Shown here: one piece after another, positions 31,516-57,198 of the stretch
How positions within the stretch are numbered: the first letter of the stretch is position 1
Layout of the letters: every line of letters starts with the position of its first letter
DNA from: an uncultured Dehalococcoidales bacterium
GTDB taxonomy: Bacteria; Chloroflexota; Dehalococcoidia; E44-bin15
Length of the DNA stretch: 64,000 nt
Reading direction: 5' to 3'
NCBI GenBank assembly: GCA_964443325.1
Contig: CAYUCL010000003.1
Location: 33,961 to 97,960 of the forward strand
Notes under the pieces: generated by a model
The model's input: the letters and a program-made list of their open reading frames with translations, nothing else
What the model was told of the DNA's origin: nothing
Database searches by the model: none
Translations under genes and position numbers: made by a program

Positions 31516-33003
31516 TTAGATGTCCACCTCTGGTGGCCATTCTGGCAGGTCCTTAAGTTCAGGGTGTTCCTTCCACCCAGGTATACCGGCAATTCTCTTA
31601 GCAATGGCTTTATACCTTGGCCAATCAGCAGAAGCGTAAAGAGCCATCCTTTGTGCTGCTAGAGAGCCTTCAGCATGAATAACGGTAGCGTCATGGCTAT
31701 CACCGGTCAGATCCTTTACCAGCCTTATAGCGCGAAGCCGATGTTCAGTTGGTACGCCACCCTTGGCGGCAAGATATTTGTCAATAAAAGGCTTTTCTTC
31801 AGGGTTCATCCAATCTTTGTAGCCAAAGACGGTTGTTGTGACTCCACCCGTGATATCGGCAAGAAGCTTGGAAGCCTCGTGCTGACCATTGGCAAACATG
31901 AACTTGGCTATATTGGTATACATCAGGTTGGGAGCAGCCAAGCCAATATCTTCATACATGTCAGGGTGCTCACAAGCTGCCTTGGCCATGGTATCGTTTA
32001 TCTGGCAATGCATGGCAAGCCATGCCAATTTCTCCTGGATATGAGGATACTTATCCAGACCATTGTATTCAGCCATCAGCGCCGCCGCGCCGGCAGTTTG
32101 CTCCAGTGATATCACTTTGTGAGTAGTGCCAAAGAGACGGTGGAAAACGCCAAAGGTCCAGGCAATATCTCTGGAAAACTGCCATTCGCCACACATAAAC
32201 ACCCTGTTCCAGGGGACAAAAACATCATCAAATACAATCATGCACTCACTAATCCCCGCAGAACGTCCGGTGAGAGGCCAATTCCACTGGGCTTCCTCAC
32301 CCGTTTCCGTAAAATGCGGTGGAGTGGTTATTAATGTGATGCCTTTAGCATTTATGGGAGTGGCAAAGACTAGTGCATAGTCCTTGTCTTCTTCACGGTG
32401 AGCCCGACATGGCGAAATGATCAGTTCGTTGGCATCGGGGGTAGCGCTTATGTGCGTCTTGGCTCCTCGCACTACTATGCCGTCTTTTTGCCTATCAACA
32501 ACCCTGACATAGAAATCCTGATGCTGTTCCTGCGCTGAGGGTCGAAGGCCCCTGTTGCCCTTAACATCGGTAATGGCTCCGGTGATAGCCGGGTCCGCTT
32601 TTTTCAGGTGCTGGCGATAATCCTCAACAGCATCCATATAATGCGTGCCTAATTCCCGATCCATTCTTGTAGCGACAACACCTGCGGCAGCCAGGGCATC
32701 AGGACCCATACCACTAATGCCTGCTCCTACCCGGAGAGCGGTTATATAAACATCCCTTCGTCTTATAAGGTCTTCAGCGGTTTTGGGCTGATTCCACAGG
32801 AACATGACTCTTTCCCCGTCCTCCTCCATGGTAATCAGGTCTCGATATTGAGGATCATTAGCAAGAACATAACCCATGGCTCTACGCTGGATGGCTCCCT
32901 TCATAAGGGGATGCTTCGTTATGTCGGGTATCTTCTCCCCCATAAGATAAATCACTCTTCCGTCATTCAAGCTTTCTATATACTGCTGTGGTGTCCTAAT
33001 CAT
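31516..33003 (-). CDS. HpaB / 4-hydroxybutyryl-CoA dehydratase family flavoenzyme (4-hydroxyphenylacetate 3-hydroxylase-like fold)
   Basis: 495 aa with acyl-CoA-dehydrogenase-like HpaB architecture. Paralog of 45345..46784. No CxxxC / H-x6-C Fe-S ligand pattern of AbfD was noticed. Confidence 0.65.
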   Translation of the reverse strand: MIRTPQQYIESLNDGRVIYLMGEKIPDITKHPLMKGAIQRRAMGYVLANDPQYRDLITMEEDGERVMFLWNQPKTAEDLIRRRDVYITALRVGAGISGMGPDALAAAGVVATRMDRELGTHYMDAVEDYRQHLKKADPAITGAITDVKGNRGLRPSAQEQHQDFYVRVVDRQKDGIVVRGAKTHISATPDANELIISPCRAHREEDKDYALVFATPINAKGITLITTPPHFTETGEEAQWNWPLTGRSAGISECMIVFDDVFVPWNRVFMCGEWQFSRDIAWTFGVFHRLFGTTHKVISLEQTAGAAALMAEYNGLDKYPHIQEKLAWLAMHCQINDTMAKAACEHPDMYEDIGLAAPNLMYTNIAKFMFANGQHEASKLLADITGGVTTTVFGYKDWMNPEEKPFIDKYLAAKGGVPTEHRLRAIRLVKDLTGDSHDATVIHAEGSLAAQRMALYASADWPRYKAIAKRIAGIPGWKEHPELKDLPEWPPEVDI

Positions 33004-35521: not shown

Positions 35522-35834
35522 GGCATCCATCTTTTCCCTGCTATCCAATCTCGACCTTCGTACTGCATTCCCGGGAAAAGCAATCCTTCCATCGTATGTA
35601 TCACGATCGGTGGCGAACGGATGCCCATCTTTGCCGCCTTGAAGCGGTAGATTTGCAATGCATTTCTTAGGTGAGCGGTTTTTCTCCCTCATTATCGCAC
35701 TATGAGATATGCTATTTAATGAATACACCTTGACTTGCGTCCCTACCTATTGTTGATTAAAATATTATCAGCACCATGAAAGTCGAAGCAACAATGACAA
35801 GCGACAATGCCAAGGTAGAGCGAGGTGTAGGATA

Positions 35835-36569: not shown

Positions 36570-37772
36570 TTACAGTATCGCCCCTTCTTCCTTCATCGCG
36601 ATGATGTCATCCCAGGTGTACCCCAAGTCGAGAAGTATCTCTTCGGTATGCTGGCCCAACTCGGGCGCCTGCTCTCGCACCATGCCCGGCGTCTCGCTCA
36701 GGTCGAGATTGACCCCAACCACCTTGGCCTCGCCGACGCCCGGATAGTCGATGGTCACCAGATAGTCATTCTCTATCACCTGCGGGTCGGAGGCCAGCTC
36801 GGTGAAAAGCTGCACTGGCGCCCACGGGAACTGCCACGGCTCCAGGCACTCGATCCACTCTCTCTGTGTTTTGGTGAGGAACAACTCGTCAAGGATGGAC
36901 ACCAGAGCATCGCTGTTCTCCCGCCTTGCTTCGTAGGCCCCGAAGCGGGGGTCCTCCTTCAGGTACTCTATCCCCACGGCTTCGCAGAACTGTGCCCAGC
37001 TCGCGTCGTCGTGCATAACCGCAATCTGGATGAACCTGTTGTCCTTGGTCTCATAGATGTTGTACAGGGAGCCCTCTTGCACGTGTGACTTGCCATACAT
37101 GTCCTGATTGGCGTATAGAGAGGCATCGACACTACAGGCCGCCATCTTCATGAAGGCGCCAAGAAGTGAGGTGTGCACCAGTTGCCCCCTGCCGCTTCTC
37201 TCGCGGTGATAAAGGGCGAGCATAACTCCGTAAACTAGGTATGTCGCTGCTATGTAATCACCCAGTGCTGGCGGCCACACCGCGGGGCGAACCCCGCGCT
37301 CGACGAAGCTCGTTAGCATCCCGGACCCCGCAACTCCGGTCACCTCGAAGCCGCCACGATTACGGCCCGGCCCCTTCAGCCCCCACCCGGTGCCCAAGGC
37401 ATATATGAGCCTGGGATTCATGTGGGACAGCGTATCGTAGTCCACTCCCAAGCGCTCAAGACCCCCCATCCGCAGGTTTGTTACGAAGATATCTGCATCC
37501 CCCACCAGCTTGTACATCACCTGCCTTGCACTCTCGAAGTGCAGGTCGAGCGTCATGCTCTTCTTTCCACGCTGGATCTGGTCGAAGTACGAATTGAATC
37601 CGTTTGACGGCACGCCGCGCAGGATATCCACCCCTCGCAAAGGGTCACCGCCGCGGGGAGTCTCAATCTTAATCACCTCCGCCCCCATCTCGGCAAGGTA
37701 TTCTGAGGTTCGCGGGCCGAATGCCTGTATGGTGAAATCAACGACCCGTATGCCCTCCAGTGGTGCACTCAT
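36570..37772 (-). CDS. family III CoA-transferase (CaiB/BaiF family)
   Basis: N-terminal LEGIRVVDFT..GP.....LAEMGAEVIKIE motif, 400 aa. Confidence 0.8.
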   Translation of the reverse strand: MSAPLEGIRVVDFTIQAFGPRTSEYLAEMGAEVIKIETPRGGDPLRGVDILRGVPSNGFNSYFDQIQRGKKSMTLDLHFESARQVMYKLVGDADIFVTNLRMGGLERLGVDYDTLSHMNPRLIYALGTGWGLKGPGRNRGGFEVTGVAGSGMLTSFVERGVRPAVWPPALGDYIAATYLVYGVMLALYHRERSGRGQLVHTSLLGAFMKMAACSVDASLYANQDMYGKSHVQEGSLYNIYETKDNRFIQIAVMHDDASWAQFCEAVGIEYLKEDPRFGAYEARRENSDALVSILDELFLTKTQREWIECLEPWQFPWAPVQLFTELASDPQVIENDYLVTIDYPGVGEAKVVGVNLDLSETPGMVREQAPELGQHTEEILLDLGYTWDDIIAMKEEGAIL

Positions 37773-37805
37773 CTATGCCTTCTCCTCTCCATGGTATGCC
37801 AGCTC

Positions 37806-39008
37806 TCAGAGTACTGCACCCTTCTCCTTCATCACAATTATGTCATCCCATGTATAGCCCAGTTCCAACAGAATCTCTTCCGTTTGTTGACCCAGTTCTG
37901 GAGCCTTGCCTCTTATCTGGCCTGGCGTCTTGCTTAGATCGATAGCAGTCCCCACTACTTTGACTTCACCAACCTCCGGATCATCCAAAGTAACAATATA
38001 ATCATTTTCAATAATTTGTGGGTCCGAAGCTAGCTCGGTAAAGTACTTAACTGGCGCCCATGGAAACTGGTATTTCTCGAGGCGCTCGATCCATTCGCTC
38101 TGGATTTTAGTGAGAAATACTTCGTCCAATATAGTAATAAGAGCCACATTATTTTCACGTCTGGCCTCTGGAGAGTTGAATCTGGGGTCATCATTTAAGT
38201 GCTCAAGGCCCATTGCTTGACAGAATTCAACCCAACTGCGGTAGTCCTGAACCACTGCCAATTGTATCCACCTCTTGTCCTTAGTCTGGTACATACTATA
38301 CAGAGCGCCATCACCTTCATGGGGCAATCCAAACATGTCCTTCCCCGCAGCAATGGAAGTATCAATAACAGCGGACATAACCTTCATACAAGTACCCAGA
38401 AGTGATACATGTACCATCTGACCTTCTCCGGTTCGTTCCCGGTGAAAAAGGGCGAGCATTATGCTATATGCCAGAAATGTTGCCGCCGTATAATCACCAA
38501 AAGCCGGCGGGCACAGCGGTGGGCGGGAGCCAGGCTCAACAAAACCCGACACTAATGCAGATCTGGCAAAACCGGTAGCCTCAAAAGCACCCCGGTTCCG
38601 TGCTGGGCCCTTCAGGCCCCACCCAGTGCCAATAGCATAGATTAGCCTGGGATTGACTCTGGATAGAGTCTCATAATCCATTCCCAGCCTTTCCAATCCA
38701 CCCATCCTCAGGTTCGTTACAAAAACGTCTGACTTCTCAATGAGTTTGTATGCTACCTCGCGTGCTTTCTCATGATGTAAATCCATGGCAATGCTTTTCT
38801 TCCCCCGATTGGTTTGCTCAAAATAAGCCTTAAACTTGCCAATTGGCACTTCCCTCATGTTATCTATCCAGCGAATAGGCTCACCGCTTTGGGGATTCTC
38901 TATCTTGGTCACCTCAGCTCCCATTTCAGCGAGATAGGCAGCAGTCTGAGGGCCAAAAGCATATTGGGTCAAATCCAGAACCTTGATTCCTTCTAGAGGC
39001 ATGCTCAT
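37806..39008 (-). CDS. family III CoA-transferase (CaiB/BaiF family), tandem paralog
   Basis: LEGIKVLDLTQYAFGP..AAYLAEMGAEVTKIE motif. About 60-65% identical to the downstream paralog, separated by 33 nt. Confidence 0.8.
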   Translation of the reverse strand: MSMPLEGIKVLDLTQYAFGPQTAAYLAEMGAEVTKIENPQSGEPIRWIDNMREVPIGKFKAYFEQTNRGKKSIAMDLHHEKAREVAYKLIEKSDVFVTNLRMGGLERLGMDYETLSRVNPRLIYAIGTGWGLKGPARNRGAFEATGFARSALVSGFVEPGSRPPLCPPAFGDYTAATFLAYSIMLALFHRERTGEGQMVHVSLLGTCMKVMSAVIDTSIAAGKDMFGLPHEGDGALYSMYQTKDKRWIQLAVVQDYRSWVEFCQAMGLEHLNDDPRFNSPEARRENNVALITILDEVFLTKIQSEWIERLEKYQFPWAPVKYFTELASDPQIIENDYIVTLDDPEVGEVKVVGTAIDLSKTPGQIRGKAPELGQQTEEILLELGYTWDDIIVMKEKGAVL

Positions 39009-39877: not shown

Positions 39878-40126
39878 ATGAGCAGAATCATTTTAGAGAA
39901 GGTATTACTCTATCGAAAGGACGGAATGGTTCCCCAGGCCTTCATCTGGCGGGGCCGAGTCTACCGCATCACCAGCGTCATAAACTGGTGGCGAGAGCCC
40001 GGAGCCTGGTGGGAGGGGGAACCAGTACGCTCTTTTCTCCGGGTCACTGCTAAGAGGGAGACCGAAGGCGTATGCGACCTGTGCAGGGTGGGACAAGATT
40101 GGCTGCTGTACCGAATTTACGACTGA
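39878..40126 (+). CDS. small conserved-looking hypothetical protein (82 aa, Trp/Arg-rich) translationally overlapping the dnaE start
   Basis: MSRIILEKVLLYRKDGMVPQAFIWRGRVYRITSVINWWREPGAWWEGEP... Its stop at 40124-40126 lies inside the first codons of the DnaE ORF. Confidence 0.4.
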   Translation: MSRIILEKVLLYRKDGMVPQAFIWRGRVYRITSVINWWREPGAWWEGEPVRSFLRVTAKRETEGVCDLCRVGQDWLLYRIYD

Positions 40127-43100
40127 AGGAGTTCATTCACCTCCATGTCCATTCCCCATACAGCTTTCTCGACGGCGTATCCCCTATCGAGCGCCTTCTA
40201 CAGAAAGCAAAGCATTTCGGCATGCCTGCTATGGCCCTAACCGACCATAATAGCCTGACCGGAGCCATTCGCTTCTACGATAGGGCAAGGGAAATGGGCA
40301 TCAAGCCTATTATCGGCGCTGAGGTCGATGTCGAAGGTGGTTATCACCTGACCATTCTAGCCCAGGGTATCGAGGGGTATGCCAACCTGTGCCATCTTCT
40401 TTCCGAAGCCCACCTGGCCAAGCTCGATCCCCACCCGGCGGCTACCAAGGAGATGCTGGCCAGGCATTCCAGTGGTCTCACAGTCCTCTCCGGTTGCAAC
40501 AAAGGCGAGATTCCTAGCCTGGTCGCCAGGGGCCTCCCGGAAAAAGCGAAGGAAGCTGCAGCATTTTACCAGAGCATCTACCCGGACCGCTTCTACATCG
40601 AGCTTGTCTACCACCCCAACAGGGATGGCAGGCGCTCCATATATCGACTGCTGGAGTTCGCCAGGGAGCTATGTCTTCCCGTCGTCGCCACCAACGACGT
40701 TCACTATGCTGAGATGGAGGAATACGCCGTCCACGAACTCCTGGAATCTATCCGGCAGATTATTCCCATAGAGCAACTTCCGGGCCCCAGGACGGTGGAG
40801 CAGTACCTCAAATCCCCTACCGAGATGGCCGCCCTTTTCAGGGATATCCCTGAAGCCCTAAGCAACACGGTAGCGGTGGCCGAGCAATGCAATCTTGATC
40901 TCCCCCTGGGCGAGCCCAAGTTTCCCGTTTTCTCTCCTCCTGCCGGATACAGCGCGCAGAGTTACCTGAGGGAACTGACATATCAAGGAGCCTCGCGTAG
41001 GTATGGAAATCCCAGCACGGTGATCCTGGATCGCCTGAAGCACGAGTTTGAGGTTATTAGCCTACTGGACTTTGAGACCTATTTCTTAGTGGTGTGGGAT
41101 ATTGCCCGCTTCGCCAGGGAAAGAGGCATCCGCTACCAGTGCCGGGGCAGCGCCGTCAATAGCCTTGTAGTCCACTGCCTGGACATCAGCAATGTGGACC
41201 CGTTGGAGTACGATCTGCTCTTTGAGCGCTTCATGCACAAGGAGCGCCGCGAGATGCCAGATATCGATCTCGACTTTCAGCGCACCAGGCGGGATGAGGT
41301 GAAGGAATACATTACCAGCAAGTACGGCAGGAACAGCGTGGCGGCAGTGGCTACCATCAACACCTTCCAGGCCAGGAGCGCCATCCGGGAGGCAGCCAAA
41401 GCTCTCAACCTGCCTAAAAGTGCTTTAATAGGGCTTCAGGCAGGCGTCCGATGGCAGTCGGTAAAGGAGCTTGCAGCGTGCACCAATACTCTCCCCGAAT
41501 TGAAGACTAACCGAGCCCTCAGAAACCCGGTGTTCAGGGATTTTCTAAAGCTGTGCTCAGCCCTGGACGGTCTGCCCCGGCACCTGTCGGTGCACCTGGG
41601 TGGTCTGGTTATCAGTCCAGGCAGTCTTGCCGACTGGGTGCCACTGCAATGGTCCAGCGGCGGCGATGTCATCACTCAGTTCGAAAAGGACGACATCGAG
41701 CGTCTGGGCCTCATCAAGATGGATATCCTGGCCGTTCCCACACTGGACGTCATCGAGGACACGGTGGCTGAGGTGAAAAGAATCCGGGGCGTCGAGGTAA
41801 ACGTAGACTCCATCCCCCGAGACGATCCCGCAGTCTTTGCCATGCACCGGGAGGGGGACACCATCGGCTGCTTTCAGGTGGAGAGCCCGGCGCAACGGGA
41901 GATGGCAGGTAGGCTGCTTCCCGAATGCTTCGATGACCTGATACTGCTACTGGCTCTCATCCGGCCAGGACCCATGAAATCGAGGATGCACGAGAAATAC
42001 CTTAAAGTGAGACAGGGGCAACAGCCGCTGACCTATCTGGACAAAAGGCTGGAACCAGTGCTCAAGGAGACCCTGGGCCAGTTGGTCTACCAGGAGCAGG
42101 TGCTCCCACGAACTGGCGGGGATGAGCTACGCCGATGCCGACGGGCTGAGGCGGGCCATGACCCATGGACGCTCTCCCGAAGAGATGGAAAAGATACGCG
42201 AGGCTTTTATCTCCTCATGTCTGAGCAACAGCGTATCTAAGACAATTGCCCAGACAGCTTGGCAAGAGGTCTCAGCCTTTGCTGCATATGGCTTCCCCAA
42301 GGGTCATGCCGCCTCCTATGCCATTCCTGCCTATCAAACCTTGTGGCTTAAGTGCCATTATCTGCCGGAGTTCCTGGTCAGCGTCCTCAATAACCAACCC
42401 ATGGGCTATTATCCACCCTGGGTGTTGGTGCAGTATGCCGGGTGGAAAGGAATCGAGGTGCTGCCACCCGACATCAACATGTCCATGGATCGCTATTCCT
42501 TAGAGGATCGAGCTATCAGGATGGGGCTGTCTCAACTCAAGGGGGTCTCTAACCCAGCCTTGGCTTCTATACTCAGCGCCAAAAATAAGGATGGGCAATT
42601 CCGCAGTGTGGGGGACTTTCTGCTGCGAACAAACGTGCCCAAGTCAACCACTGAGGATCTCATCAAGGTGGGGGCCTTCGACTCCATTTGTGGTAACCGG
42701 TGCCAGCTTATATCCCAGCTAGATTCCCTGCTTACGAACAAGCAGAGGCGCAGGCATGGTACGCAGAATGAAATGATTCCCTTTGGCGAAGTTGGCAAGG
42801 AAAATCTCACCGATGCCTCAACTCCACCCATCGATGCTGCTCTGTGGCAGCACTACGAGCTTGACCTGCTGGGTCTTCCCATTAGCGGACACCCTCTGGA
42901 TTCGCTGGATGGCCGGATTAAGGGCATCACCAAAATCAAAGACCTGAAGGGGTTGCTAGCCAACCACCGGGTAAAACTTGCAGTGGGGGTTATCAGATAC
43001 CAGACCCCGCCTATCTGGGATGGAACCAGAGTTGTCTATATCTGCGCCGCGGACGAAACGGGCATTGTGGATATAACTCTCTTCTCGGACGCCCAGGAAC

Positions 43101-43246
43101 GCTCAGGTGAAGCTCTCTTCAAGGCAGGATGGCTCTTGGTTGAGGGAATTGTGCAGCGTCGAGGACTCCACGCACTGTCAGTGATAGCTTATCGTGTTGC
43201 CACCTTACAGCCCCCCGCTTCAAGTCAACGTAAAAAATGTTTTTAA
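40072..43246 (+). pseudogene. dnaE: DNA polymerase III alpha subunit (DnaE family, short form ending after the OB fold) interrupted by a +1 frameshift near 42100-42112
   Basis: ORF 40072..42240 carries the PHP domain (HLHVHSPYSFLDG) and polymerase core up to ...VYQEQVL. DnaE homology then continues in the +1 frame (HELAGMSYADADGLRRAMTHGRSPEEMEKIR..FAAYGFPKGHAASYAIPAYQTLWLKCHYLPEF..) as ORF 42122..43246. The combined length is about 1055 aa. Confidence 0.75.
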
Positions 43247-43483
43247 TTTGGCAACTATCCCTTGAAGGTAGGTATAATACAATGATAATGGGTAAAACAA
43301 ATAGGCTGGAGACCTTGCTCATTGCCTCTCAACCTATTTGCTATTGGGTTCTATATTACAGTCGATTGCTTTCCCATCAAGCTACCGCCCCACCAAGATT
43401 ATAGCACTATGATAAAATTTTTGACTAGAGAGCAATAAAATGATATGCTGACTTCCCTGAAAGGCCAAGAAGGGAGGCGCAGT

Positions 43484-44305
43484 ATGTCATTGGGTATAGT
43501 ATTCAAGGGACCCGAAGGCATTGTTTTAGCTGCTGATAGTAGGGTTACGCTTAACGCACATTTGCCAAACCAAAATTTAATCATTTCAGCTACGTTTGAT
43601 AATGCTACTAAGCTACTCAGAGTTAAGGGGCAAGATTATATCGGAGCAGTCACCTATGGGATGGGAGCTCTAGGAGAAGGAACTCCTCGAACCGCTCACA
43701 GTTTTATCCCAGAATTTGAGGCTAAGTTAAGTAATGAATCAGGGGATAGATTGAGTGTCCCAGATTTTGCAGATAAGATTAGTGAGTTTTTCTTGTCTCA
43801 ATGGACAACAAGCATGCCCAACAATTATCAAGGACCAGATATGGTATTTCTGGTAGGTGGGTTTGACGAAGGTTCTCCGTATGGGCGAGCCTTTGAGATT
43901 GGGATACCCTCTCGACCAACACCAAAAGAATGGCACGTAAATACTTTTGGGCCTGTATGGGGTGGGCAGCGAGAGTTCACAGACCGTTTAATACAAGGAT
44001 TTGACCCAAGAGTGCTAGATATAGTTAAGGATACATTTGGCTTATCTAATGACCAGCAGGTTGAATTACAAGATAAACTTAAACCGCTCAGCGTGCAAAT
44101 CCCTTATCCTTTTCTACCATTGCAGGACTGTGTTGACTTGTCTATCTTTTTAGTGAGAACTACTATGACTATTCAAACATGGCAAGTAGGTGTGCGGGGC
44201 GTAGGTGGTGCAATAGATGTCGCTACTATTACTCGAACTGATGGATTCAAGCCTGTGCAACTGAAAAGAGTAAGAGGTGAATCATCCAGTATGGAGGAAG
44301 ATTAA
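43484..44305 (+). CDS. proteasome beta-subunit-type Ntn-hydrolase homologue with Ser at the nucleophile position
   Basis: Start at the internal Met, which has a GGGAGG RBS. MSLGIVFKGPEGIVLAADSRVTL aligns with proteasome beta / HslV / Anbu N-termini (TTIVGV.YKDGVVLAADTRAT). Asp17 and a Lys about 40 are retained, and there is a C-terminal extension. Confidence 0.5.
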   Translation: MSLGIVFKGPEGIVLAADSRVTLNAHLPNQNLIISATFDNATKLLRVKGQDYIGAVTYGMGALGEGTPRTAHSFIPEFEAKLSNESGDRLSVPDFADKISEFFLSQWTTSMPNNYQGPDMVFLVGGFDEGSPYGRAFEIGIPSRPTPKEWHVNTFGPVWGGQREFTDRLIQGFDPRVLDIVKDTFGLSNDQQVELQDKLKPLSVQIPYPFLPLQDCVDLSIFLVRTTMTIQTWQVGVRGVGGAIDVATITRTDGFKPVQLKRVRGESSSMEED

Positions 44306-44306
44306 A

Positions 44307-44504
44307 GTGGAAGTTCTAACAAATGGAGTGGGAACAAAAGAATGGGAGGAAATAAGTAAGGATTGGTATATTTACGCATATGTGCCAGGTTCTCCTATAG
44401 GTGATGTAACCGAAGGGTTATCTTCAGAAGAACAGGATAGTGTTTTCACGAAACAAGACTCTGAAAAAGTACTCAAAGAAGTTAGCCGCAAAATTAAGAA
44501 GTAG
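44307..44504 (+). CDS. small hypothetical protein (about 65 aa) translationally coupled to the proteasome homologue
   Basis: GTG at 44307, 1 nt after the TAA stop of the upstream gene, with GGAGGAAG 7 nt upstream. No family recognised. Confidence 0.3.
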   Translation: MEVLTNGVGTKEWEEISKDWYIYAYVPGSPIGDVTEGLSSEEQDSVFTKQDSEKVLKEVSRKIKK

Positions 44505-44665
44505 TTATTTGGCCTAGAACAGTCTTGAACATAGCTCTTTCATCTTTCCTATGATTGTATCGAAAGGTGTATTCGTCTAGACATGATTGGAGATACTTAG
44601 GTGATATAGCATGATAGACATCAGAAATACCACGCTTAACCAAAGACCAGAAACCCTCAATGCTA

Positions 44666-45181
44666 TTACTGCTGAGAATCCTTCTCCATCTCCTCCAGGA
44701 TGATTCTGGTTGTGAGCCTGGCTGTTTCCCCAACGAGCTTTGAGCAATAATCGAACATACCAAACTTCGTGGCTTCTTGTAGCTCATTAGGGTCATACAG
44801 GTTGAAAGTCCTGCCCATAAGCCTTTCTTGAATGTCGTAACACCGGCAAGTGCCATATTTTTCAACAAACTCGTCATGCAACCTTTTTGACAGTATATAG
44901 GATTTCAGCGGCTTCATCATATCGGCAAAATCCTTCCTTTCCCTGCCAAAAAGATAGCCTATCACTATAGCCCCTGCCGTGAGAGACCCACAAGTCCCAT
45001 CTCCGGTTAGCCCCAGCCCGTCAGCTAAACCACTCGCCGCCTTGAAAACATCTTCATTGTCAATATCAAGAGCATCGAAAATTCCCGCAATCGTAGTCTG
45101 TGCGCATCCAGTACATTCCCTTTCATACTTGCGCCCCCGCTCAAAGGCCTTATTTGAAATCTCTTCGATTGACTTTCCCAT
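44666..45181 (-). CDS. C_GCAxxG_C_C family (putative redox-active) protein
   Basis: CTGCAQTTIAGI motif plus downstream Cys residues. Start moved to the Met with an AAGGGGG RBS. Confidence 0.6.
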   Translation of the reverse strand: MGKSIEEISNKAFERGRKYERECTGCAQTTIAGIFDALDIDNEDVFKAASGLADGLGLTGDGTCGSLTAGAIVIGYLFGRERKDFADMMKPLKSYILSKRLHDEFVEKYGTCRCYDIQERLMGRTFNLYDPNELQEATKFGMFDYCSKLVGETARLTTRIILEEMEKDSQQ

Positions 45182-45344
45182 ATAATTCCCCCTTACTGTT
45201 TTTTCAAACAACATACTTCGATGAGAAATACTTATCTATGCCACACATAATTGTACCATCTCACCAGCATTAATGACCAAGCTAAATGCCCAGGATCTAC
45301 CACCGCTTATTCTAATCCCCTTGCACGGCCAAGCGTCCACATGC

Positions 45345-46784
45345 CTATGGCAACTTATACACTGGCTCTGTAGGTAGATCCTTGAAATCAGGATGGTCCG
45401 TAGGAAGTCCCAGAGAATGCCTGGCCGCAGCCTTATATCGCTCCCAATCGGCCTGCATATAAACCGTCATTCGCTGAGCCGCCAAAGACCCCTCAGCATG
45501 AATGGTAAGCGCTCCCATGAAAGACGAGCCCTCACGGTTTACCGCATTCATAAGTTGTATCCTCTCCTCAGCAGGATACTCCGCAGCGCCCTGAAGATAC
45601 TTCTCCAGATAAGGACGGATTTCGGGATTGTCCCAGTCCTTCAGCGAAGGCATGGTTGCTGGAAGCCCACCAGTTATGTCCTGGAGATACTTGACTGCCT
45701 GATGCCAATTTTCGGCAAACCAGAACTTAGCACAATTGCTATAGACCGGATTGGGCGCCGCCAGACCTATCTCCGGGTCTATTGTAGCGTCTAAAGCTGC
45801 TGCCTTGCCCAGAGCCTCATTTATCTCAGCATACATAGCAAGCCAGGCTAGCATGTCCATAATACGGGTAGCACGAGTGAGTCCATTGTGTTCTGCCATT
45901 AACATGGCAGTCCCTGCAAGCGTCTGGAGCATAACCGTCTTGTAGGTGGCGGCAGTAAGTCGATGGTATCGCGCGAATGACATCGCTACCTCCCTTGAAA
46001 ACTGCCACTCCCCGGCGAGGAAAACCTTGTCCCAGGGAACAAAAACATCGTCAAAGACAATCATCGGGTGTGCCCCAGGCTGCCCCTGATCCGACATAGT
46101 CCCAATAAAAACAACCCCTTTGGCGTTGCATGGTACGGCACAGGCCACAGCATAATCTTTGGCCGGCTCATTGTGGTTGCGTGAGGGCAATACTACTAGC
46201 CAATTGGCATAAATGGCGTCGGTGATGTGAACCTTGGCACCCCTGATGACGATACCATCGCTGCTTCGGTCAACGATCCTGACATAGAAATCTGGATTCG
46301 CTTGCCTTGGGTCTTCGGGGTGCAAGCTCCTGTTGCCTTTCACATCGGTCATTGTAGCAACAATGCCAGGGTCATGTTTCTGACAATAATTGCGGAATTC
46401 TTCAACGTGCTCGGCATAATTGGTGCCTATCGCCAGGTCCATCTTCCTGGCGCTGTAGGCAATTCCGTTCAGTCCATCAATTCCGGTGAACTTCGTACCT
46501 CCGGCAGCCGAGCGAAACAGCGTCTGAATGATCAGTCTCCGTCTCTGAAGATCTTCACCAGTCTTAGGCACGTGATAAACAAAAGGATACTCTTCCCCAT
46601 CCTTCACCACATTGAACAGCTCACGGTTCTCAGGCTGCAAAGCTATATAGTATTCTGAAGCTGCGTGCTCCACTGCTCTCTTGTAAGCTGGAAGGGAAGG
46701 TACATCCGATACCCTCTCCCCATCCTGGTAAACTACCCTTCCATCTCTCAGGTCTTCTACAAACTGCTCAGGCGTCCTAAGCAT
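45345..46784 (-). CDS. HpaB / 4-hydroxybutyryl-CoA dehydratase family flavoenzyme, paralog of 31516..33003
   Basis: 479 aa. Conserved blocks DFYVRIVDRS.DGIVIRGAK.H.T, IVFDDVFVPW.KVF..GEWQFSR and TIHAEGSLAAQRM are shared with the other copy. AAGGAGG RBS. Confidence 0.65.
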   Translation of the reverse strand: MLRTPEQFVEDLRDGRVVYQDGERVSDVPSLPAYKRAVEHAASEYYIALQPENRELFNVVKDGEEYPFVYHVPKTGEDLQRRRLIIQTLFRSAAGGTKFTGIDGLNGIAYSARKMDLAIGTNYAEHVEEFRNYCQKHDPGIVATMTDVKGNRSLHPEDPRQANPDFYVRIVDRSSDGIVIRGAKVHITDAIYANWLVVLPSRNHNEPAKDYAVACAVPCNAKGVVFIGTMSDQGQPGAHPMIVFDDVFVPWDKVFLAGEWQFSREVAMSFARYHRLTAATYKTVMLQTLAGTAMLMAEHNGLTRATRIMDMLAWLAMYAEINEALGKAAALDATIDPEIGLAAPNPVYSNCAKFWFAENWHQAVKYLQDITGGLPATMPSLKDWDNPEIRPYLEKYLQGAAEYPAEERIQLMNAVNREGSSFMGALTIHAEGSLAAQRMTVYMQADWERYKAAARHSLGLPTDHPDFKDLPTEPVYKLP

Positions 46785-47046
46785 GATACCTCCTTAGTCT
46801 GTTCTTAATTATGCACATATTTTTAAAAAACAACCCTAACGTTATTTTCGCGATATGACCCCCTCCCTTCATGTATCTCTATGAGTCAAGGCATCGATAT
46901 TGTGGTATTTCCAAGTTGCCTTGTCAATTATTTGTATTTACCCACACCAACGTTATACTATCATACCACTATCCGAAATCTTTTTAAAAAAAGAATGAGC
47001 CCCCCGACTTCACCGGAGGGCCCCATTCAATATTCCCAGCCTATCT

Positions 47047-49578
47047 CTAGCCCAGTCCTTGCACTGTCCTCTGGATAATATTGTCCTGTGTCTTGCGGCT
47101 GATGTCCACAAAATGGGCGCTGTACCCAGCCACCCGCACTATCAACTCCTGGTACTTCTCCGGCTCCCGCTGCGCCGCCCGCAACGTGGCATCATCTACC
47201 ATGTTGAACTGCACATGGTCCAGCCCCAGGTCAGCCCATGTCTTCATGTACGCCTTCCATAGCTGATACCCCTTCTCCCCCGCTAGCTGCGTCGGAGAAA
47301 GCCGCTGGTTCAACAGGAACGCCCGGCCATCGCTGATGTGGTTTATCTTGCCGCATGACTTCAGCACCGCTGTTGGCCCCTTCTTGTCAAGTCCAGGGCC
47401 TGGTGAAAGGCCTCCGTCGTAGAGGGCGTCGCCCAGCCTCCTGCCATTGGGCAAGGCATGTACCCTATTGGAGAAATGGATGTTGCCGCTCACATTCTCC
47501 GGCAGCACCGGCCATGGGTTTCCGCAAGGGTCCTTCAACTCGTGGGAGTGTCGGCTTATTTCGTGCAAGCAGCGCACCATTATATCGTCCACGTAGTCTT
47601 CATCATTGCCCCACTTGGGAGCTCTCTTGACGAAGTCAAGCCGTATTTCCTCGTAGCCCTCCCAGTTGGCTTCAAGGGCGGTTATCAACTGGTCCATTGA
47701 GTACTTCTTATCTTCAAATACGAGCTTCTTCACCGCCGCCAGAGCATCTACATTCTCTACCCATGTGAAGAAGGTAACCCAGCTATTGCCTCGCTCACCA
47801 GACCTTGGGTCGACTGTGTCCCAACCGCTGTCCACCGACCTCTCGGAGATGCCCGACAAGAATGGACGACCGAAACTCTTATAGGAATTCGCCCGCCCGG
47901 CGTTAACGATGCGCACCCCAAAGTTCATCAACCACTCCATCTGTTTGACCCACGCCTCAAACAATTGCTCAAAGTCGGTGAACTGACGCGCATCGCCAGT
48001 CTTCGGCCCTATCTGCATCTGCATACAATGGTCATATCCATTATGGAGGGCATACTCGATCATCTTTGCGGCGTTCATAGTCGCCGATGCCATTCGGCAC
48101 GGCTGATAGCCATACTTGGTGGTGGGAGCGGGCGACATGCACGCCTGGTGCACCCATGTCCTCATCTCCTCCAGAGGGTGATTATGCCAGTACATCCCAT
48201 TTTGAATCAGGATGGGGTCATTGCGAATCGAGGGATAGCCCAGACCATGCCTGATACACTCGAATATCTCCCGCATTACCTCATCTTTTACCTGAGGATG
48301 CCAGCGGAAGCCAAAGGTAGGGTTGGACACCCGCACCATCCTCGCCGCCTGCAGGAACGCTGTCGTCAGGTCGGTACATGCATCACTACCATCCTTATTT
48401 ACCCCACCCAGAGTCCACACCCAGGTGCCTACTATGCCCTGCAGCGCTTCGGCTCCACCTCGGCCTAAAAAGTGGCCCATTTCGTAGGCTCGGATGAGGG
48501 ACTCCCCTACCAGGTCGAGCGCTTCGTCCTTGGTGAGTGTCTTATCTATATTCACATCCTTGTTGTAATAGGGCCAGCCATAGTAGTCCGGTCGTGTAGG
48601 CCACGCCGACTCAAATTCCTCCAGTCTGGTCCAGGTTTGTATGAAGTGCTGCATCTGCAAATGCTCCTGGAAGGTTCTGGCCGGCTTCGCCGGCACCCGC
48701 TCGCAGGTTTCGGCGACCTTCAGCAGCTCCTCCTTGCGCCTGGCATCCGGTTCATAGTTCTCCGCTATAATCCGCGCCAGCCTTGCATATCGCTTAGCGT
48801 GATTGATGCAACCCTCCAGTGCGATCTGCATCGCCTCCCAGTTGGGCAGCTTCTCGTAAATGTCAAGCTCAGCACCATCGGGCGTGCCATCTAGCTGATC
48901 CTCACCCTCATCGATCTTCACCTGGATGTCGTTGATCATATCCTCGAATCCCTTGCCACCACCCACCTCCTGGTTCTTACCAAATATGTACTCATAATCT
49001 TTACCGGAATAACCATAGCTGCCACCGAAAGGAAAACCCCACATGAGCGCCCCTGTAATGTACTTCCCCACATCCTCAGACCTGAGAATCTTGAACATCT
49101 CCTTTATATGACCCTGAGTGCCCCAGTAGTTGGCGACATCAGACATAATCTGTAAGGATTCCTCCTTCGGCTCAGGGATGATGATCGGATCATTGTAGAT
49201 CTCACCACCCATCATCTGCGCATTGGCATACAGGGTGTTCGGAAGGTTACCCTCAGTAGCTACAAGCTGTGCATGATCGCTTATGAAAACAGTCCTGTTT
49301 TCCATCATATAGGCCAGAGCCTTCGCCCTCCTCAGCATGAGGGGGTTACCTTCGCTCGCCTTCCAGCCCTCGGTGTATAGCTGTGGGCTTTCCAGGTCAA
49401 TCTTTAGACCCTGTTCATACGCCCCTCCCCTTCGCCCCTTTTTCCACACCGCTTTCCTCAGGTAGTCCAGCCTCGGCGACCTCTTCTTCTCCGCCGCCCA
49501 CCACCACGCCCTTTCCGTCTCGAGCTCATCTACAGACTTATCTGGCGCTGCACTTTGCTTTGCTATTATTTCCGCCAT
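47047..49578 (-). CDS. glycyl radical enzyme, X-succinate synthase (fumarate-adding enzyme, BssA/AssA-like) catalytic subunit candidate
   Basis: 843 aa. Glycyl radical loop RVAGYSAHFVDI at the C-terminus, Cys loop HQACMSPAP, GND(E)D block, and multiple blocks recalled as BssA-like (see findings). Confidence 0.7.
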   Translation of the reverse strand: MAEIIAKQSAAPDKSVDELETERAWWWAAEKKRSPRLDYLRKAVWKKGRRGGAYEQGLKIDLESPQLYTEGWKASEGNPLMLRRAKALAYMMENRTVFISDHAQLVATEGNLPNTLYANAQMMGGEIYNDPIIIPEPKEESLQIMSDVANYWGTQGHIKEMFKILRSEDVGKYITGALMWGFPFGGSYGYSGKDYEYIFGKNQEVGGGKGFEDMINDIQVKIDEGEDQLDGTPDGAELDIYEKLPNWEAMQIALEGCINHAKRYARLARIIAENYEPDARRKEELLKVAETCERVPAKPARTFQEHLQMQHFIQTWTRLEEFESAWPTRPDYYGWPYYNKDVNIDKTLTKDEALDLVGESLIRAYEMGHFLGRGGAEALQGIVGTWVWTLGGVNKDGSDACTDLTTAFLQAARMVRVSNPTFGFRWHPQVKDEVMREIFECIRHGLGYPSIRNDPILIQNGMYWHNHPLEEMRTWVHQACMSPAPTTKYGYQPCRMASATMNAAKMIEYALHNGYDHCMQMQIGPKTGDARQFTDFEQLFEAWVKQMEWLMNFGVRIVNAGRANSYKSFGRPFLSGISERSVDSGWDTVDPRSGERGNSWVTFFTWVENVDALAAVKKLVFEDKKYSMDQLITALEANWEGYEEIRLDFVKRAPKWGNDEDYVDDIMVRCLHEISRHSHELKDPCGNPWPVLPENVSGNIHFSNRVHALPNGRRLGDALYDGGLSPGPGLDKKGPTAVLKSCGKINHISDGRAFLLNQRLSPTQLAGEKGYQLWKAYMKTWADLGLDHVQFNMVDDATLRAAQREPEKYQELIVRVAGYSAHFVDISRKTQDNIIQRTVQGLG

Positions 49579-49678: not shown

Positions 49679-50035
49679 TCACTTCATCAACTGCCTTTGG
49701 TGACGACTATACCGCGGGTCGAATGCCTCTCCAATATCAGTGTCGATAAGCTCCATCTCTTTATAATACTTACACTTGCTGGCATCCATCTTTATATCTG
49801 ACATCAAGTTCACTTCACCATCCAGCACAAACACCGGCGGCTCGCTCTCAATCTGAGAACCCATTTTCAAAACGAGACAGTGACCGGCGGTAAGTCCGGC
49901 AGAAGCGAAAAAGTTCTTGCATTTCCCGCATGCCTTTTCGGGTATATACTCCCTCTCTTCTACAGTTTTGCCCAGCTCTTGCATACTCAAATAGCCCTGC
50001 TTCACCTGATCCCATTCACTCTTTCTCCTCGGCAT
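49679..50035 (-). CDS. small Cys-containing protein (118 aa), candidate Fe-S small subunit (BssC/AssC-like position) of the GRE
   Basis: ATG at 50035 with an AAGGAGG RBS. Four Cys residues (CGKC...GHC...SKC). Immediately upstream of the GRE gene on the same strand, 101-nt gap. Confidence 0.35.
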   Translation of the reverse strand: MPRRKSEWDQVKQGYLSMQELGKTVEEREYIPEKACGKCKNFFASAGLTAGHCLVLKMGSQIESEPPVFVLDGEVNLMSDIKMDASKCKYYKEMELIDTDIGEAFDPRYSRHQRQLMK

Positions 50036-50080
50036 GCCACCCTCCTTTCCGTTATCTCCATATATCAAAACTGTAATGCT

Positions 50081-52648: not shown

Positions 52649-53542
52649 ATGAATCATAAATGGCAGCATCGTTTTGTGAATACAAATGGAATCCGTATGC
52701 ACTACGTTGAGCAGGGAGAGGGTTTCCCCGTGCTCCTCCTCCATGGTTTTCCCGAGCTTTGGTATTCATGGAGATACCAGATACCGGAGTTGGCCAATGC
52801 CGGCTTCCACGCCATTGCACCCGACCTGCGCGGCTATGGTGAGACAGACAAGCCTGAGGGCATCGAGTCCTATGACATCCATCATTTGATTGGAGACCTG
52901 GTAGGTTTACTTGATGCTCTTGAGTTGGAGCGCGCAGTGATTGTAGGGCATGATTGGGGTGGCATTATTACCTGGCAGATGGCTTTGATATGTCCAGAGC
53001 GCGTTGAGCGAGTGATCTCACTGAATACTCCTTTCCAACTTCACGGCCCCGTGCGGCCAACAGAGGCCTTCAGCCAAACCCCTGACGGCCGGTTCAACTA
53101 TATCATCTATTTTCAGCAGCCGGGACAGGCCGAAGCGGATATTGAGCCTAATATAGAGGCCTTTTTGGAAACGACGATGCGCCGTCTCGCCACAGAAGAA
53201 AGCTTCATTACCGAGGAGACCCTCAAGGTCTTTTCTAATGCCTTCCACAAAGGGGGCCTAACTGGCCCGATTAATTACTATCGCAACTTCGACCGCAACT
53301 GGGAGACAACCGCTCATCTCACAGGCCGCAAAGTCACTATGCCCGCACTCATGATTTGCGCCGAAAATGACTCGATACTCACACCACAAATGACGAATGG
53401 TATGGAACGTCATGTTCCCAATCTCACCACTCGCCTGGTTAAGAATTGCGGGCACTGGACCCAGCAAGAGCGACCCGACGAGGTCAACCGCCTGATCATA
53501 GAATTCCTTCACGACCTGAAGAGGAGGCGAGACAATGTTTGA
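52649..53542 (+). CDS. alpha/beta hydrolase, epoxide hydrolase / haloalkane dehalogenase-like
   Basis: HGFPELWYSWRYQ motif and GHDWGG nucleophile elbow. The start at the internal Met is preceded by a G-rich RBS. Confidence 0.75.
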   Translation: MNHKWQHRFVNTNGIRMHYVEQGEGFPVLLLHGFPELWYSWRYQIPELANAGFHAIAPDLRGYGETDKPEGIESYDIHHLIGDLVGLLDALELERAVIVGHDWGGIITWQMALICPERVERVISLNTPFQLHGPVRPTEAFSQTPDGRFNYIIYFQQPGQAEADIEPNIEAFLETTMRRLATEESFITEETLKVFSNAFHKGGLTGPINYYRNFDRNWETTAHLTGRKVTMPALMICAENDSILTPQMTNGMERHVPNLTTRLVKNCGHWTQQERPDEVNRLIIEFLHDLKRRRDNV

Positions 53543-54563
53543 ACTAATATTTGATGAAAAGAAATGCTTGGCTTGCCAGACTTGTGATTGTCTCACCAAG
53601 TGCCAGTATATGGATATAGACATAGATACAGCGAAAACAGAGATGAGGAAGATAATCAACGGTGAAGATTCTTTCGTATTACACCAGTGCGTAACATGCT
53701 ATGCCTGCGAGGAATACTGCAAAATGGGGAACCACCCCTTCTATCTAATCGCTGAGCGCCAGGAAGAACTGGGCATACCGCCTACGCCCAAGCCTGTTAT
53801 CAGGCAATGGGTTCAATTGGCTATCCCGCAGATGGGAGAACTCAAGATTGAACAGGTTAAGGAGCCGGTTCTCAGTATGTGCATGTTCGGTCAGCTTGCT
53901 GGTTCAATCCAGGGGAAACTGTTTGACGGTGTCTCCATTCTACCAAGGGAGAATCAAGAAGGGATGCAATTCTTCTGTCAGTTGATGTACCTGCACTTTG
54001 CCAGGACTTCCGTAATAAAAGAGAGGCTCCCGAGGATAATAGAGAACATCACCAAGCACAATATCACAGAGCTCATATGCTTCCACGACGAGTGCTACGG
54101 TACCTTTACCTCATACGCACCTGCCGTGGGCATCGAAGTCCCGTTCAAACCAATTCATTTCTTTGAGTATCTGTACAACAGGCTAGTGGAACTCAAGGAC
54201 GACATAAAACCGCTGAATTTGAAGGTGGCTTATCAGCGTCCCTGCTCGTCCAGGCTTTCCCCAGAAAAACTCCACTTCGTCGACGATATCTTCAACCTGA
54301 TAGGGGTGGAGAGCGTCAAAAGAGAGTATGTTGGCGAGAATGCCCTATGCTGCGGAGCACCTATCAGAGGACAGAGAAAGGAAGGAAGCCGTCAACTCGC
54401 TATTGATTTGCAGCGGAGAAACATACAGGATATGATTGACGCTGGGGCCGAATTCTGCGTTTTCAACTGCCCCTATTGCTTCCTTACCCTGTCGGAGCGC
54501 GTTACCAAGAGCGGCTTGAAGCCCGTCTTTATGGGCGACCTTTGCCGGCTCGCCGTTGGCTAG
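53535..54563 (+). CDS. Fe-S oxidoreductase with two ferredoxin-type Cys clusters and a C-terminal CCG domain (HdrD/GlpC/LutA-like)
   Basis: CLACQTCDCLTKC, CVTCYACEEYC, LCCGAP and CVFNCPYC motifs. ATGTTTGA overlap with the upstream hydrolase gene. Confidence 0.7.
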   Translation: MFELIFDEKKCLACQTCDCLTKCQYMDIDIDTAKTEMRKIINGEDSFVLHQCVTCYACEEYCKMGNHPFYLIAERQEELGIPPTPKPVIRQWVQLAIPQMGELKIEQVKEPVLSMCMFGQLAGSIQGKLFDGVSILPRENQEGMQFFCQLMYLHFARTSVIKERLPRIIENITKHNITELICFHDECYGTFTSYAPAVGIEVPFKPIHFFEYLYNRLVELKDDIKPLNLKVAYQRPCSSRLSPEKLHFVDDIFNLIGVESVKREYVGENALCCGAPIRGQRKEGSRQLAIDLQRRNIQDMIDAGAEFCVFNCPYCFLTLSERVTKSGLKPVFMGDLCRLAVG

Positions 54564-54588
54564 AAACTAGCATAATGGAGATGATACT

Positions 54589-55968
54589 GTGGATTCAATA
54601 TTTAAATCATTAGCTGAAATAGTTGGAGAAAGTCACGTCTCCAGCCAACCAGAGGAGCTTTATATCTATTCTTATGACCTTGGCACGACTGAGCCTCATC
54701 GTCCGGACTATATAGTGGCGCCGAGGACGACTCATGAAGTGCAAGAAATAGTTAAGCTAGCAAATAGGGGGAAAATCCCGGTGGTTCCTCTTGGAGGCGG
54801 GTTGTCCCTAGCTGGTCTGGCTGTGCCTCAGCGGGGAGGCATCGTGCTGGACCTAAAGAGGATGGACACAATAATAGAGGTAAATGGAAAGGCAAGGTAT
54901 GTAGTTGTCGAGGCTGGCGTTTCACAGGGGCAGCTAATATCCTACCTGGAGAAGTACCACCCCAAACTGAGACACTCAGAGCCACAGGCACCAGGTCCAG
55001 CCACGATTGCGGGCAATGTAGCGATACACGGTCAAGGCGATCTGGCTCAGCCGTATGGCTTCAATTCCGATATGGTGAACGGGCTAGAGGTTGTCTTACC
55101 AACAGGAGAGTTGTGCAAAATCGGCTCCTGTTCAGTATCTCCCATTTGGTTCACCCTACACCCCTTGCCCGATTTAGGTCTCTTCCTCGGATGGTCTGGC
55201 ACCACGGGCATCATTACCAAGCTGTCGCTTAAGCTTTTCCCATCGAAAAGGATCAGGGAAGTGGAGCAGTTTATAGTCGAGGATGCGGAGCTGGTTCCAG
55301 AAATTATATACAAAATCAGTCACACAGAGATGGCTGAAGATATATTCGCCGGAACTCAAACGACCATTCCTGCTCGTATGGGTCTCCACCATGTAACTAT
55401 GTATATCACCGCTGATTCGGAAAAGGAACTCGAATTCAAGACAGGGTTAATCTGGGATGACGCACTCGGGGAATATATTCGGAATGGAGATGGGGGGTTC
55501 GTCGATTTACCACCCCCTATAAAAGCTCGCTTTACCGAGAGACCCAGTATGCTGCTGTCTACAGTCGCTGATGCCAAAGAGGGTGGAGGCTTTGAATATG
55601 TCGGGGGCATTATGCCAATGGAAACCTACCCTGAGTGCTGCAAGCGAGGGGCTGAGATCTGTTCCAGACACGATATTCCTCAACTGTTGATCGCGCGGGT
55701 TATTGGACGGTCTCACTCTATGATGTTTGCCTGGGCATATGTATTCAATCGCGCTGACCTTGAGAGCATCAGGCAAGCGAGGGAAGCCGTACATGAAACG
55801 GACGACCTTGTCCTGGAGTTGGGTGGGGCTATCTGGAAACCCGGCGTTTATGGACAGAGGCTAATGATGCAACGAATTGACCCTACTACTCTCAAACTCA
55901 TGGAGATGGTAAAGGGGCTTCTCGACCCTAACGGCATTATGAACCCTGGAAATTGGGAGGCAGTATAA
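54589..55968 (+). CDS. FAD-linked oxidase (GlcD / D-lactate dehydrogenase family)
   Basis: FAD_binding_4 region PRTTHEVQEIVKLANRGKIPVVPLGGGLS and a C-terminal FAD-oxidase_C region. GTG start. Confidence 0.8.
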   Translation: MDSIFKSLAEIVGESHVSSQPEELYIYSYDLGTTEPHRPDYIVAPRTTHEVQEIVKLANRGKIPVVPLGGGLSLAGLAVPQRGGIVLDLKRMDTIIEVNGKARYVVVEAGVSQGQLISYLEKYHPKLRHSEPQAPGPATIAGNVAIHGQGDLAQPYGFNSDMVNGLEVVLPTGELCKIGSCSVSPIWFTLHPLPDLGLFLGWSGTTGIITKLSLKLFPSKRIREVEQFIVEDAELVPEIIYKISHTEMAEDIFAGTQTTIPARMGLHHVTMYITADSEKELEFKTGLIWDDALGEYIRNGDGGFVDLPPPIKARFTERPSMLLSTVADAKEGGGFEYVGGIMPMETYPECCKRGAEICSRHDIPQLLIARVIGRSHSMMFAWAYVFNRADLESIRQAREAVHETDDLVLELGGAIWKPGVYGQRLMMQRIDPTTLKLMEMVKGLLDPNGIMNPGNWEAV

Positions 55969-57194: not shown

Positions 57195-57198
57195 TATT

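Follow-up and report, generated by a model that had tools for sequence, protein, structure and literature searches.

In a 64,000-nucleotide stretch of DNA from an uncultured Dehalococcoidales bacterium (here called the window), we analyzed a gene for a 479-amino-acid flavoenzyme of the HpaB/AbfD superfamily (45345..46784, minus strand) and a gene for a C_GCAxxG_C_C protein, which lie downstream of a gene for a glycyl radical enzyme (GRE) of the alkylsuccinate synthase type. A sequence-only reading of this DNA had proposed that both genes are co-transcribed with the GRE and act on the coenzyme A (CoA) ester product of its pathway. Our analysis points to a different explanation, to which we assign a probability of about 60%: the adjacency to the GRE would be a by-product of insertion and deletion with no shared operon or pathway, and the HpaB-like protein would be an acyl-CoA isomerase- or dehydrogenase-type enzyme that depends neither on O2 nor on an iron-sulfur cluster. 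All results refer to the 64-kb window and, for its relatives, to metagenomic contigs (L-numbered loci), and a gene described as absent is absent at that locus only.

The open reading frame (ORF) of the HpaB-like gene is real, as had been proposed, and its product matches both Pfam domains of the family (HpaB_N, 4.9e-63; C-terminal HpaB domain, 4.2e-49). These domains are also found in AbfD-type proteins and do not discriminate between AbfD, the 4-hydroxybutyryl-CoA dehydratase (4HBD), and the oxygenase HpaB. The best PDB sequence matches are two 4HBD structures, 6vjr of N. maritimus (189 bits) and 1u8v of C. aminobutyricum (167 bits), with 27-28% identity and the same length and domain order, followed by T. 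thermophilus HpaB (2yyg, 126 bits). The AlphaFold2 model (pLDDT 91.1) predicts the acyl-CoA dehydrogenase (ACAD)-like fold of the 4HBD type, with Foldseek TM-scores of 0.86-0.87 to 6vjr and 1u8v and 0.80-0.84 to HpaBs. The motif TDxKGxR is shared with 4HBDs and Thr190 of AbfD is conserved. Several other active-site residues of AbfD are not. Its [4Fe-4S] ligands, which we take to be Cys99, Cys103, Cys299 and His292 (1U8V numbering; reportedly described by Martins and colleagues in 2004), map to Gly95, Phe99, Tyr281 and His274 of the window protein, leaving no canonical [4Fe-4S] site, and Lys300 is kept as Lys282. The Cys/His ligands had been reported as unseen, which is right for the three cysteines and wrong for the histidine. 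The catalytic residues of AbfD, presumably Glu257, Tyr296 and Glu455 (said to have been established by Zhang and colleagues in 2015), are changed to His239 and Ala278 or, for Glu455, have no counterpart, which makes an AbfD-type dehydratase role unlikely.

These residue states are a property of a clade. When the protein was aligned with its 119 nearest homologs (47-95% identity), they recurred in 80-119 sequences, all three cluster cysteines are absent throughout, and His274, Lys282 and Glu431 are conserved in 113-119. Named members come from metagenome-assembled genomes (MAGs) of Desulfobacterota, Dehalococcoidia and Thermodesulfobacteriota, and the clade occurs widely among Desulfobacterota and Dehalococcoidia of anoxic sediments. 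As judged from its residues, the 479-amino-acid protein fits the canonical form of HpaB no better than that of AbfD and is neither.

The most distinctive residue of the clade is Glu431, which takes the place of Ala460 in AbfD and is present in 118 of the 119 homologs within the motif I-H-A-E-G-S-x3-Q-R. From a search of 1.84 billion cluster representatives (50% identity), the 95 full-length sequences among the best 150 were aligned. Cysteines at both the C103 and the C299 column occur in 47 of these 95, and 46 of the 47 have the third cysteine as well, as do both solved 4HBDs, which carry the canonical triad. None of the 47 has a glutamate at column 431 (46 have A, G or S). The glutamate is found in 21 of the other 48 representatives, none with the full cysteine set. 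Among the 20 Cys-free representatives with Glu431, His274 and Tyr281 are kept in 17 and Lys or Arg at position 282 in 18; this 'H274-Y281-K282-E431' clade, to which the window protein belongs, makes up 20 of the 95 nearest representatives.

The sequence E-G-S-x3-Q-R resembles the catalytic-base motif E-G-T-x4-R of ACADs (MCAD/SCAD type), with which the window protein shares the superfold (Foldseek E ~1e-10; hhalign probability 66% over 237 columns). It differs from them in being about 100 residues longer, in its HpaB-type N-terminal domain and in a C-terminal insertion; the TM-score is only ~0.48 and there is no Pfam ACAD match. Profile alignment places E431-G-S..Q-R on the base motif E-G-T..R: a global alignment matches the G-S..R part, and a short, weak local alignment of the C-terminal part (E 0.024) pairs glutamate with glutamate. 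In the mechanism that we propose, Glu431 of the flavin-bound enzyme would remove a proton from the alpha (or gamma) position of the acyl-CoA thioester substrate, and the reaction would be that of an enoyl-CoA isomerase, comparable to the vinylacetyl-CoA isomerase half-reaction of AbfD, or of a dehydrogenase, in either case independent of O2 and of a cluster. The isomerase activity of AbfD is air-stable and survives exposure to air, and ACAD glutamates can support 3-enoyl/2-enoyl isomerisation. Given these properties and the Glu431 base motif, an O2-independent acyl-CoA isomerase or dehydrogenase-type enzyme is the most likely assignment; at most, cluster-independent isomerase-type chemistry may be common to this protein and AbfD. 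We further propose, at somewhat less than even odds, that the HpaB/AbfD superfamily has a third functional class and that this clade is it. Its members would dispense with both O2/FADH2 and an Fe-S cluster and would employ an ACAD-like glutamate base on acyl-CoA thioesters, as enoyl-CoA isomerases or unusual dehydrogenases. Such a clade may represent a state ancestral to the radical chemistry of 4HBD, or one derived from it.

The gene neighborhoods of the clade are suggestive of a CoA-ester substrate. Across 88 loci, the recurrent neighbors are genes for short-chain dehydrogenases/reductases (14), acyl-CoA ligases (13, sometimes directly adjacent), MarR regulators (12), alpha/beta-hydrolases (9), family-III CoA-transferases (9-11), enoyl-CoA hydratases (8), ACADs (7), ADP-forming acyl-CoA synthetases (7) and TetR regulators (6). 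A CoA-type neighbor was present in 31 of the 63 loci whose flanking sequence reached 3 kb or more. Together with the Glu431 motif, these neighborhoods make a CoA-ester substrate plausible. To this extent the suggestion that the protein is a dehydratase or isomerase acting on a CoA ester is supported; the AbfD-type dehydratase part of it is unlikely, given the loss of the Glu257, Tyr296 and Glu455 equivalents.

The same neighborhoods bear on another assignment, in which the protein would be an HpaB-type flavin monooxygenase of the two-component, O2-dependent kind whose active site has diverged and which works on an aromatic or phenolic substrate under micro-oxic conditions. The window protein is like the HpaB oxygenases (T. 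thermophilus 2YYG, E. coli 6EB0, TftD, HadA) in having both Pfam HpaB domains and their fold (Foldseek TM-scores of 0.82-0.84 to HpaBs), the regulator HpaR of E. coli is of the MarR type, and the MarR, TetR and alpha/beta-hydrolase genes recur; at one locus (L086) a Flavodoxin_2/FMN_red gene lies 5 kb from the clade member. However, the residues Arg100, Tyr104 and His142 of T. thermophilus HpaB, which presumably serve phenol binding and stabilization of the hydroperoxyflavin, correspond to Thr100, Gly104 and Ala143, and T/G/A stand at these positions in 80-113 of the 119 homologs (Thr100 in 113). The scores are far below the cut-offs of both NCBIfam HpaB models (TIGR02309, HpaB-1, 146.8 vs. 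480.2 bits; TIGR02310, 81.2 vs. 885.2 bits), and the clade is nearer to 4HBDs than to HpaBs in the PDB matches and the shared TDxKGxR motif. No HpaC-type reductase or reductase cluster recurs among the neighbors of the 88 clade loci, and no flavin reductase gene adjoins the HpaB-like gene in the window, where its neighbors are the GRE and C_GCAxxG genes. The groups to which the named MAGs belong are generally regarded as anaerobes. A monooxygenase of this kind is therefore unlikely, in agreement with the sequence-only reading, which had argued against an oxygenase.

On the minus strand, a 129-amino-acid ORF and the 843-amino-acid GRE are followed, after a gap of 262 nt, by the HpaB-like gene and, after a spacer of ~160 nt, by the C_GCAxxG gene and the tail of an IS1595 transposase. 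The two genes do lie downstream of the GRE on the same strand, as had been noted, and both intergenic gaps are long. Directly after the GRE stop codon, a predicted intrinsic terminator (46987..47023, minus strand) consists of a hairpin with 12 pairs, 8 of them GC, and a loop of 3, then ATTCTTTTTTT, with a T7 run and a minimum free energy of -24.5 kcal/mol. About 70 nt beyond the hairpin, a promoter-like site TTGACA-17-CACAAT (46899..46927, minus strand; 10/12 consensus matches) precedes the HpaB-like gene, whose ribosome-binding site (RBS) AAGGAGG (46789..46795, minus strand) comes after it, 4 nt ahead of the ATG at 46784. A weaker promoter-like site, TGGTCA-18-TACAAT with a TG (45250..45279, minus strand; 9/12 matches), lies upstream of the C_GCAxxG gene. 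In the 96%-identical relative L087 the spacer that separates GRE and HpaB-like gene is ~85% identical, yet both promoter hexamers and the T7 run are identical and the terminator stem is preserved via changes of the U.G->U-A type. The HpaB-like and C_GCAxxG genes are thus probably transcribed separately and independently of each other, and the predicted signals between GRE and HpaB-like gene argue, in silico, against the proposed co-transcription; evidence of this kind had been named in the sequence-only reading as refuting its proposal.

Locus history was reconstructed from related contigs within this Dehalococcoidia group, which show three arrangements (L001, L171 and L087/L070). In L001, whose HpaB-like ortholog is 87% identical, the order is abhydrolase <- PlsY - GT2 (glycosyltransferase) - HpaB-like - ACAD - Fer4/nitroreductase, without a GRE or C_GCAxxG gene. 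In L171 (77-80% amino-acid identity) the order is 3-hydroxyacyl-CoA dehydrogenase (3HCDH) - GT2 - ACAD - Fer4/nitroreductase - acyl-CoA ligase - thiolase - acyl-CoA ligase - C_GCAxxG - small ORF - CoA-transferase - CoA-transferase - p231 - DUF763 - HDAC - NMO - zf, and this locus lacks an HpaB-like gene as well as a GRE. L087 and L070 (94-96% identical) have the gene order of the window, which is PlsY - GT2 - (MasB - MasD) - HpaB-like - C_GCAxxG - (IS tail, 286-amino-acid ORF, split DnaE) - small ORF - CoA-transferase - CoA-transferase - p231 - DUF763 remnant - HDAC - NMO - (HpaB paralog) - zf. The ACAD, CoA-ligase and thiolase genes of the L171 block match nothing anywhere in the window. Comparison of these orders shows that the region downstream of the PlsY-glycosyltransferase pair is variable in this lineage: a masB-masD cassette was inserted between the GT2 gene and a resident HpaB-like gene, and the five-gene block (ACAD, Fer4/nitroreductase, acyl-CoA ligase, thiolase, acyl-CoA ligase) downstream of the latter was then lost. 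The C_GCAxxG gene adjoins the HpaB-like gene because this block is missing.

The arrangement is also rare elsewhere. Neither an HpaB-like nor a C_GCAxxG homolog was present within 10 kb at any of 78 AssA/MasD loci from GTDB genomes (flanks of up to 10 kb), of which 49 have a MasB-like ORF beside the GRE. Conversely, only two of the 88 HpaB-like loci contain any GRE, L087 of the same lineage and L113; L087 is the only one with a C_GCAxxG gene and the only one with the AssA-type GRE arrangement of the window. In L113 (1562-6135) a clade member with a TetR gene upstream is convergent to a GRE of the PFL2/dehydratase type and its activase; this single convergent case with a different type of GRE was treated as coincidence.

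These data also bear on the possibility that the HpaB-like enzyme and a C_GCAxxG redox partner were recruited to the alkylsuccinate pathway and are co-expressed with the GRE, for example to isomerise or dehydrogenate an enoyl-CoA derived from alkylsuccinyl-CoA. If true, the link would mean new steps in anaerobic alkane degradation. The genes are adjacent and co-oriented, their order is retained in L087 and L070, two family-III CoA-transferase genes lie ~6 kb away and the clade probably acts on CoA esters. Against this stand the predicted terminator and promoter between the genes, the 78 AssA loci, none of which shares the association, and the ortholog of L001, which occupies the same site without a GRE. 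The CoA-transferase and C_GCAxxG genes are present in L171 without a GRE at the locus, and the GRE and HpaB-like genes differ in GC content at third codon positions (GC3; 0.68 and 0.54, respectively). The product of alkylsuccinate synthase is free alkylsuccinate and no CoA ester (PMC12358834). Recruitment to the pathway appears quite improbable, and the C_GCAxxG gene is unconnected with the GRE.

Several observations weigh against the explanation that we prefer, by-product adjacency and an acyl-CoA isomerase/dehydrogenase. The GRE-HpaB-CGCA order has been retained in the lineage (window, L087 and L070), and the terminator and promoter are sequence-pattern predictions that would permit read-through or co-regulation. 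The equivalence of Glu431 and the ACAD base comes from a short, weak profile alignment (E 0.024) and motif likeness, not from structural superposition. Enrichment of CoA-type neighbors is modest, with a high background in genomes that are rich in beta-oxidation genes, and the MarR and alpha/beta-hydrolase neighbors are also compatible with an aromatic or phenolic substrate. The searchable literature yielded no characterized or assayed cluster-less AbfD homolog of this clade. As for a link of 4HBD-like genes to alkylsuccinate pathways, it yielded nothing relevant.

A non-catalytic or decaying paralog might be considered, since a paralog of archaeal 4HBD of the Msed_1220 type is listed with activity ND (PMC7078158). 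This is very unlikely for a clade that is 60-75% identical across phyla, with 78 alignment columns in which 97% or more of the 119 sequences agree, and for a gene with an intact ORF, a strong RBS and a confident model of its product (pLDDT 91). A genuine 4HBD that binds its cluster via other ligands has the two best PDB matches and the retained His ligand and Lys300 in its favor and is nevertheless extremely unlikely, since the three cluster cysteines are absent clade-wide, the clade cysteines at positions 134, 183, 215 and 219 are partly conserved and none is invariant, Glu257, Tyr296 and Glu455 are not conserved, and 46 of the 47 cysteine-bearing relatives have the canonical triad.

The names "4-hydroxyphenylacetate 3-hydroxylase" and "4-hydroxybutyryl-CoA dehydratase" given automatically to members of the clade (about 120 listed homologs, 47-95% identity) are probably wrong, because the defining residues of both enzymes are absent and the glutamate at the ACAD position never occurs together with the full Fe-S ligand set. 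This matters where 4HBD homologs serve as marker genes of 4-hydroxybutyrate carbon-fixation cycles, and annotators should not assign the HpaB-like and C_GCAxxG genes to ass/mas clusters. The result is a large, well-conserved, uncharacterized variant of the AbfD/HpaB fold with a Glu-for-cluster signature, which offers a simple, testable case of one fold switching between acid-base and radical chemistry.

The C_GCAxxG_C_C protein is also real (Pfam PF09719, 3.9e-21; 75.8 bits vs. a gathering cut-off of 27). The listed start of its gene (45214, 182 amino acids) has no good RBS. The ATG at 45181 is most likely the real start (44666..45181, minus strand, 171 amino acids), because it is preceded by the RBS AAGGGGG (45188-45194) and gives the length of most of the 120 nearest homologs. 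The strong RBS ascribed to each gene holds for the HpaB-like gene as listed; that of the C_GCAxxG gene belongs to this later start. The nearest 120 homologs, 65-92% identical and mostly 171-173 amino acids long, are from Dehalococcoidia, Desulfobacterota, Bathyarchaeia and Freyarchaeota; Cys26, Cys64, Cys112, Cys114 and Cys146 are invariant in 121 sequences and Cys23 is nearly so. The Pfam score and the cysteine pattern are shared with the C_GCAxxG_C_C family (PF09719/TIGR01909; DVU_1555 subfamily), whereas the NCBIfam models are below their cut-offs (TIGR01909 narrowly, 45.0 vs. 47.4; the other model 47.7 vs. 103) and the family motif reads C-x-GCAQTT, with T instead of the second G. In near relatives the gene lies 35 nt behind an acyl-CoA ligase gene and ahead of two family-III CoA-transferase genes. 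A search for a partner conserved across phyla gave only loose recurrences of DUF763 and transglutaminase-core genes, and the searchable literature gave no function. The protein is a conserved small cysteine-rich protein that probably binds a metal or takes part in redox reactions. The DUF763 gene, of which only the last 54 codons are left in the window (35480-35641), is intact in L171 and L169 and also adjoins C_GCAxxG genes in the unrelated contigs L176-L178. The tandem family-III CoA-transferase paralogs (36570-39008) are 62% identical to each other but differ strongly in GC3 (0.74 and 0.47), and L171, without a GRE at the locus, retains the two of them.

A second HpaB-type protein of 495 amino acids (31516..33003, minus strand) was present as described, with the same two domains, 46% identity to the first and the cluster-less signature, in which His replaces Tyr281. 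Its gene stands between the NMO gene (33177-34127) and the zf gene (30730-31017) and has promoter-like and terminator-like sites of its own. Relative to L171 both HpaB-type genes of the window are single-gene indels, and the two copies do not bear out the pathway-level importance that had been read into them. The NMO gene was rejected as a partner of the paralog: the pairing is not conserved, since L171 has NMO at this place in the backbone and lacks the paralog.

The GRE itself (47047..49578, minus strand) has the Pfam domains PFL-like and Gly_radical and aligns end to end with MasD (PDB 9o8u_A, 1193.7 bits), with the glycyl motif RVAGYS and the cysteine motif ACMSP conserved. Family models gave sub-threshold matches of the dehydratase type only. 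The adjoining 129-amino-acid ORF (49679..50068, minus strand) is a homolog of MasB, the beta subunit and accessory subunit of the GRE (9o8u_B, 1.2e-14). MasD is the catalytic subunit and MasB a subunit of (1-methylalkyl)succinate synthase (PMC12358834). On these matches the GRE is assigned as a fumarate-adding, alkane-activating alkylsuccinate synthase. The cassette differs from MasBCDE/AssABC systems in consisting of masB-masD only: a motif scan of the 64-kb window found no MasC, MasE or activase (MasG/AssD), and no activase with an N-terminal CxxxCxxC motif. Within the 64 kb, masB-masD therefore forms an 'orphan' two-gene cassette. A stricter activase motif scan of the AssA loci found four and was too crude to be used. 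The closest relatives of the GRE are from Dehalococcoidia/Dehalococcoidales MAGs (79-94% identity), genomes in which several assA copies have already been reported (PMC7673041); the closest homologs include Dehalococcoidales MAGs with several contigs that carry one assA copy each. The GC3 contrast of the GRE with the HpaB-like gene lends weak support to a foreign origin of the GRE, as the backbone itself is heterogeneous. When the flanks of masB-masD were searched for direct or inverted repeats, which would point to a mobile element, only short matches at chance level turned up.

The IS1595-family transposase remnant (44497..44676, minus strand) is a C-terminal piece (Pfam DDE_Tnp_IS1595, 2.6e-09, covering just positions 113-153 of the 153-position profile) that abuts the C_GCAxxG stop codon and is absent in L087 and L171. 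The 286-amino-acid ORF beside it (43445-44676) has no Pfam or NCBIfam match and a GC3 of 0.34. L087, collinear in other respects, lacks the remnant and this ORF, so they represent a recent small insertion. Farther along, a DnaE-type polymerase gene (40072-43246) is split into two overlapping ORFs of 722 and 374 amino acids by a frameshift or sequencing error; L087 has the gene, and L171 lacks all of it at this position. Between the alpha/beta-hydrolase and 3HCDH genes, a block (53535-61595) that is absent at that position in L001 contains two tandem pairs of genes for a CCG-domain protein and an FAD-linked oxidase, a third Cys-rich CCG protein gene and EtfB/EtfA-like genes. Four enoyl-CoA hydratase/isomerase-like paralogs (2460-4251 and 8746-10587), judged by eye from their translations, and nitroreductase-like genes (8208-8720 and 16899-17474) suggest a genome rich in CoA-ester metabolism, which implies a higher background rate for counts of CoA-type neighbors. 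Finally, an NMO/FabK-like gene (PF03060) whose product is 33-39% identical to that of 33177-34127 lies ~4-10 kb (mostly 6-8 kb) downstream of assA in 15 of the 78 AssA loci (L014, L019, L032, L043, L044, L048, L049, L051, L059, L060, L062, L065, L068, L072 and L076), Smithella SCADC included, and might be a conserved component of ass clusters.

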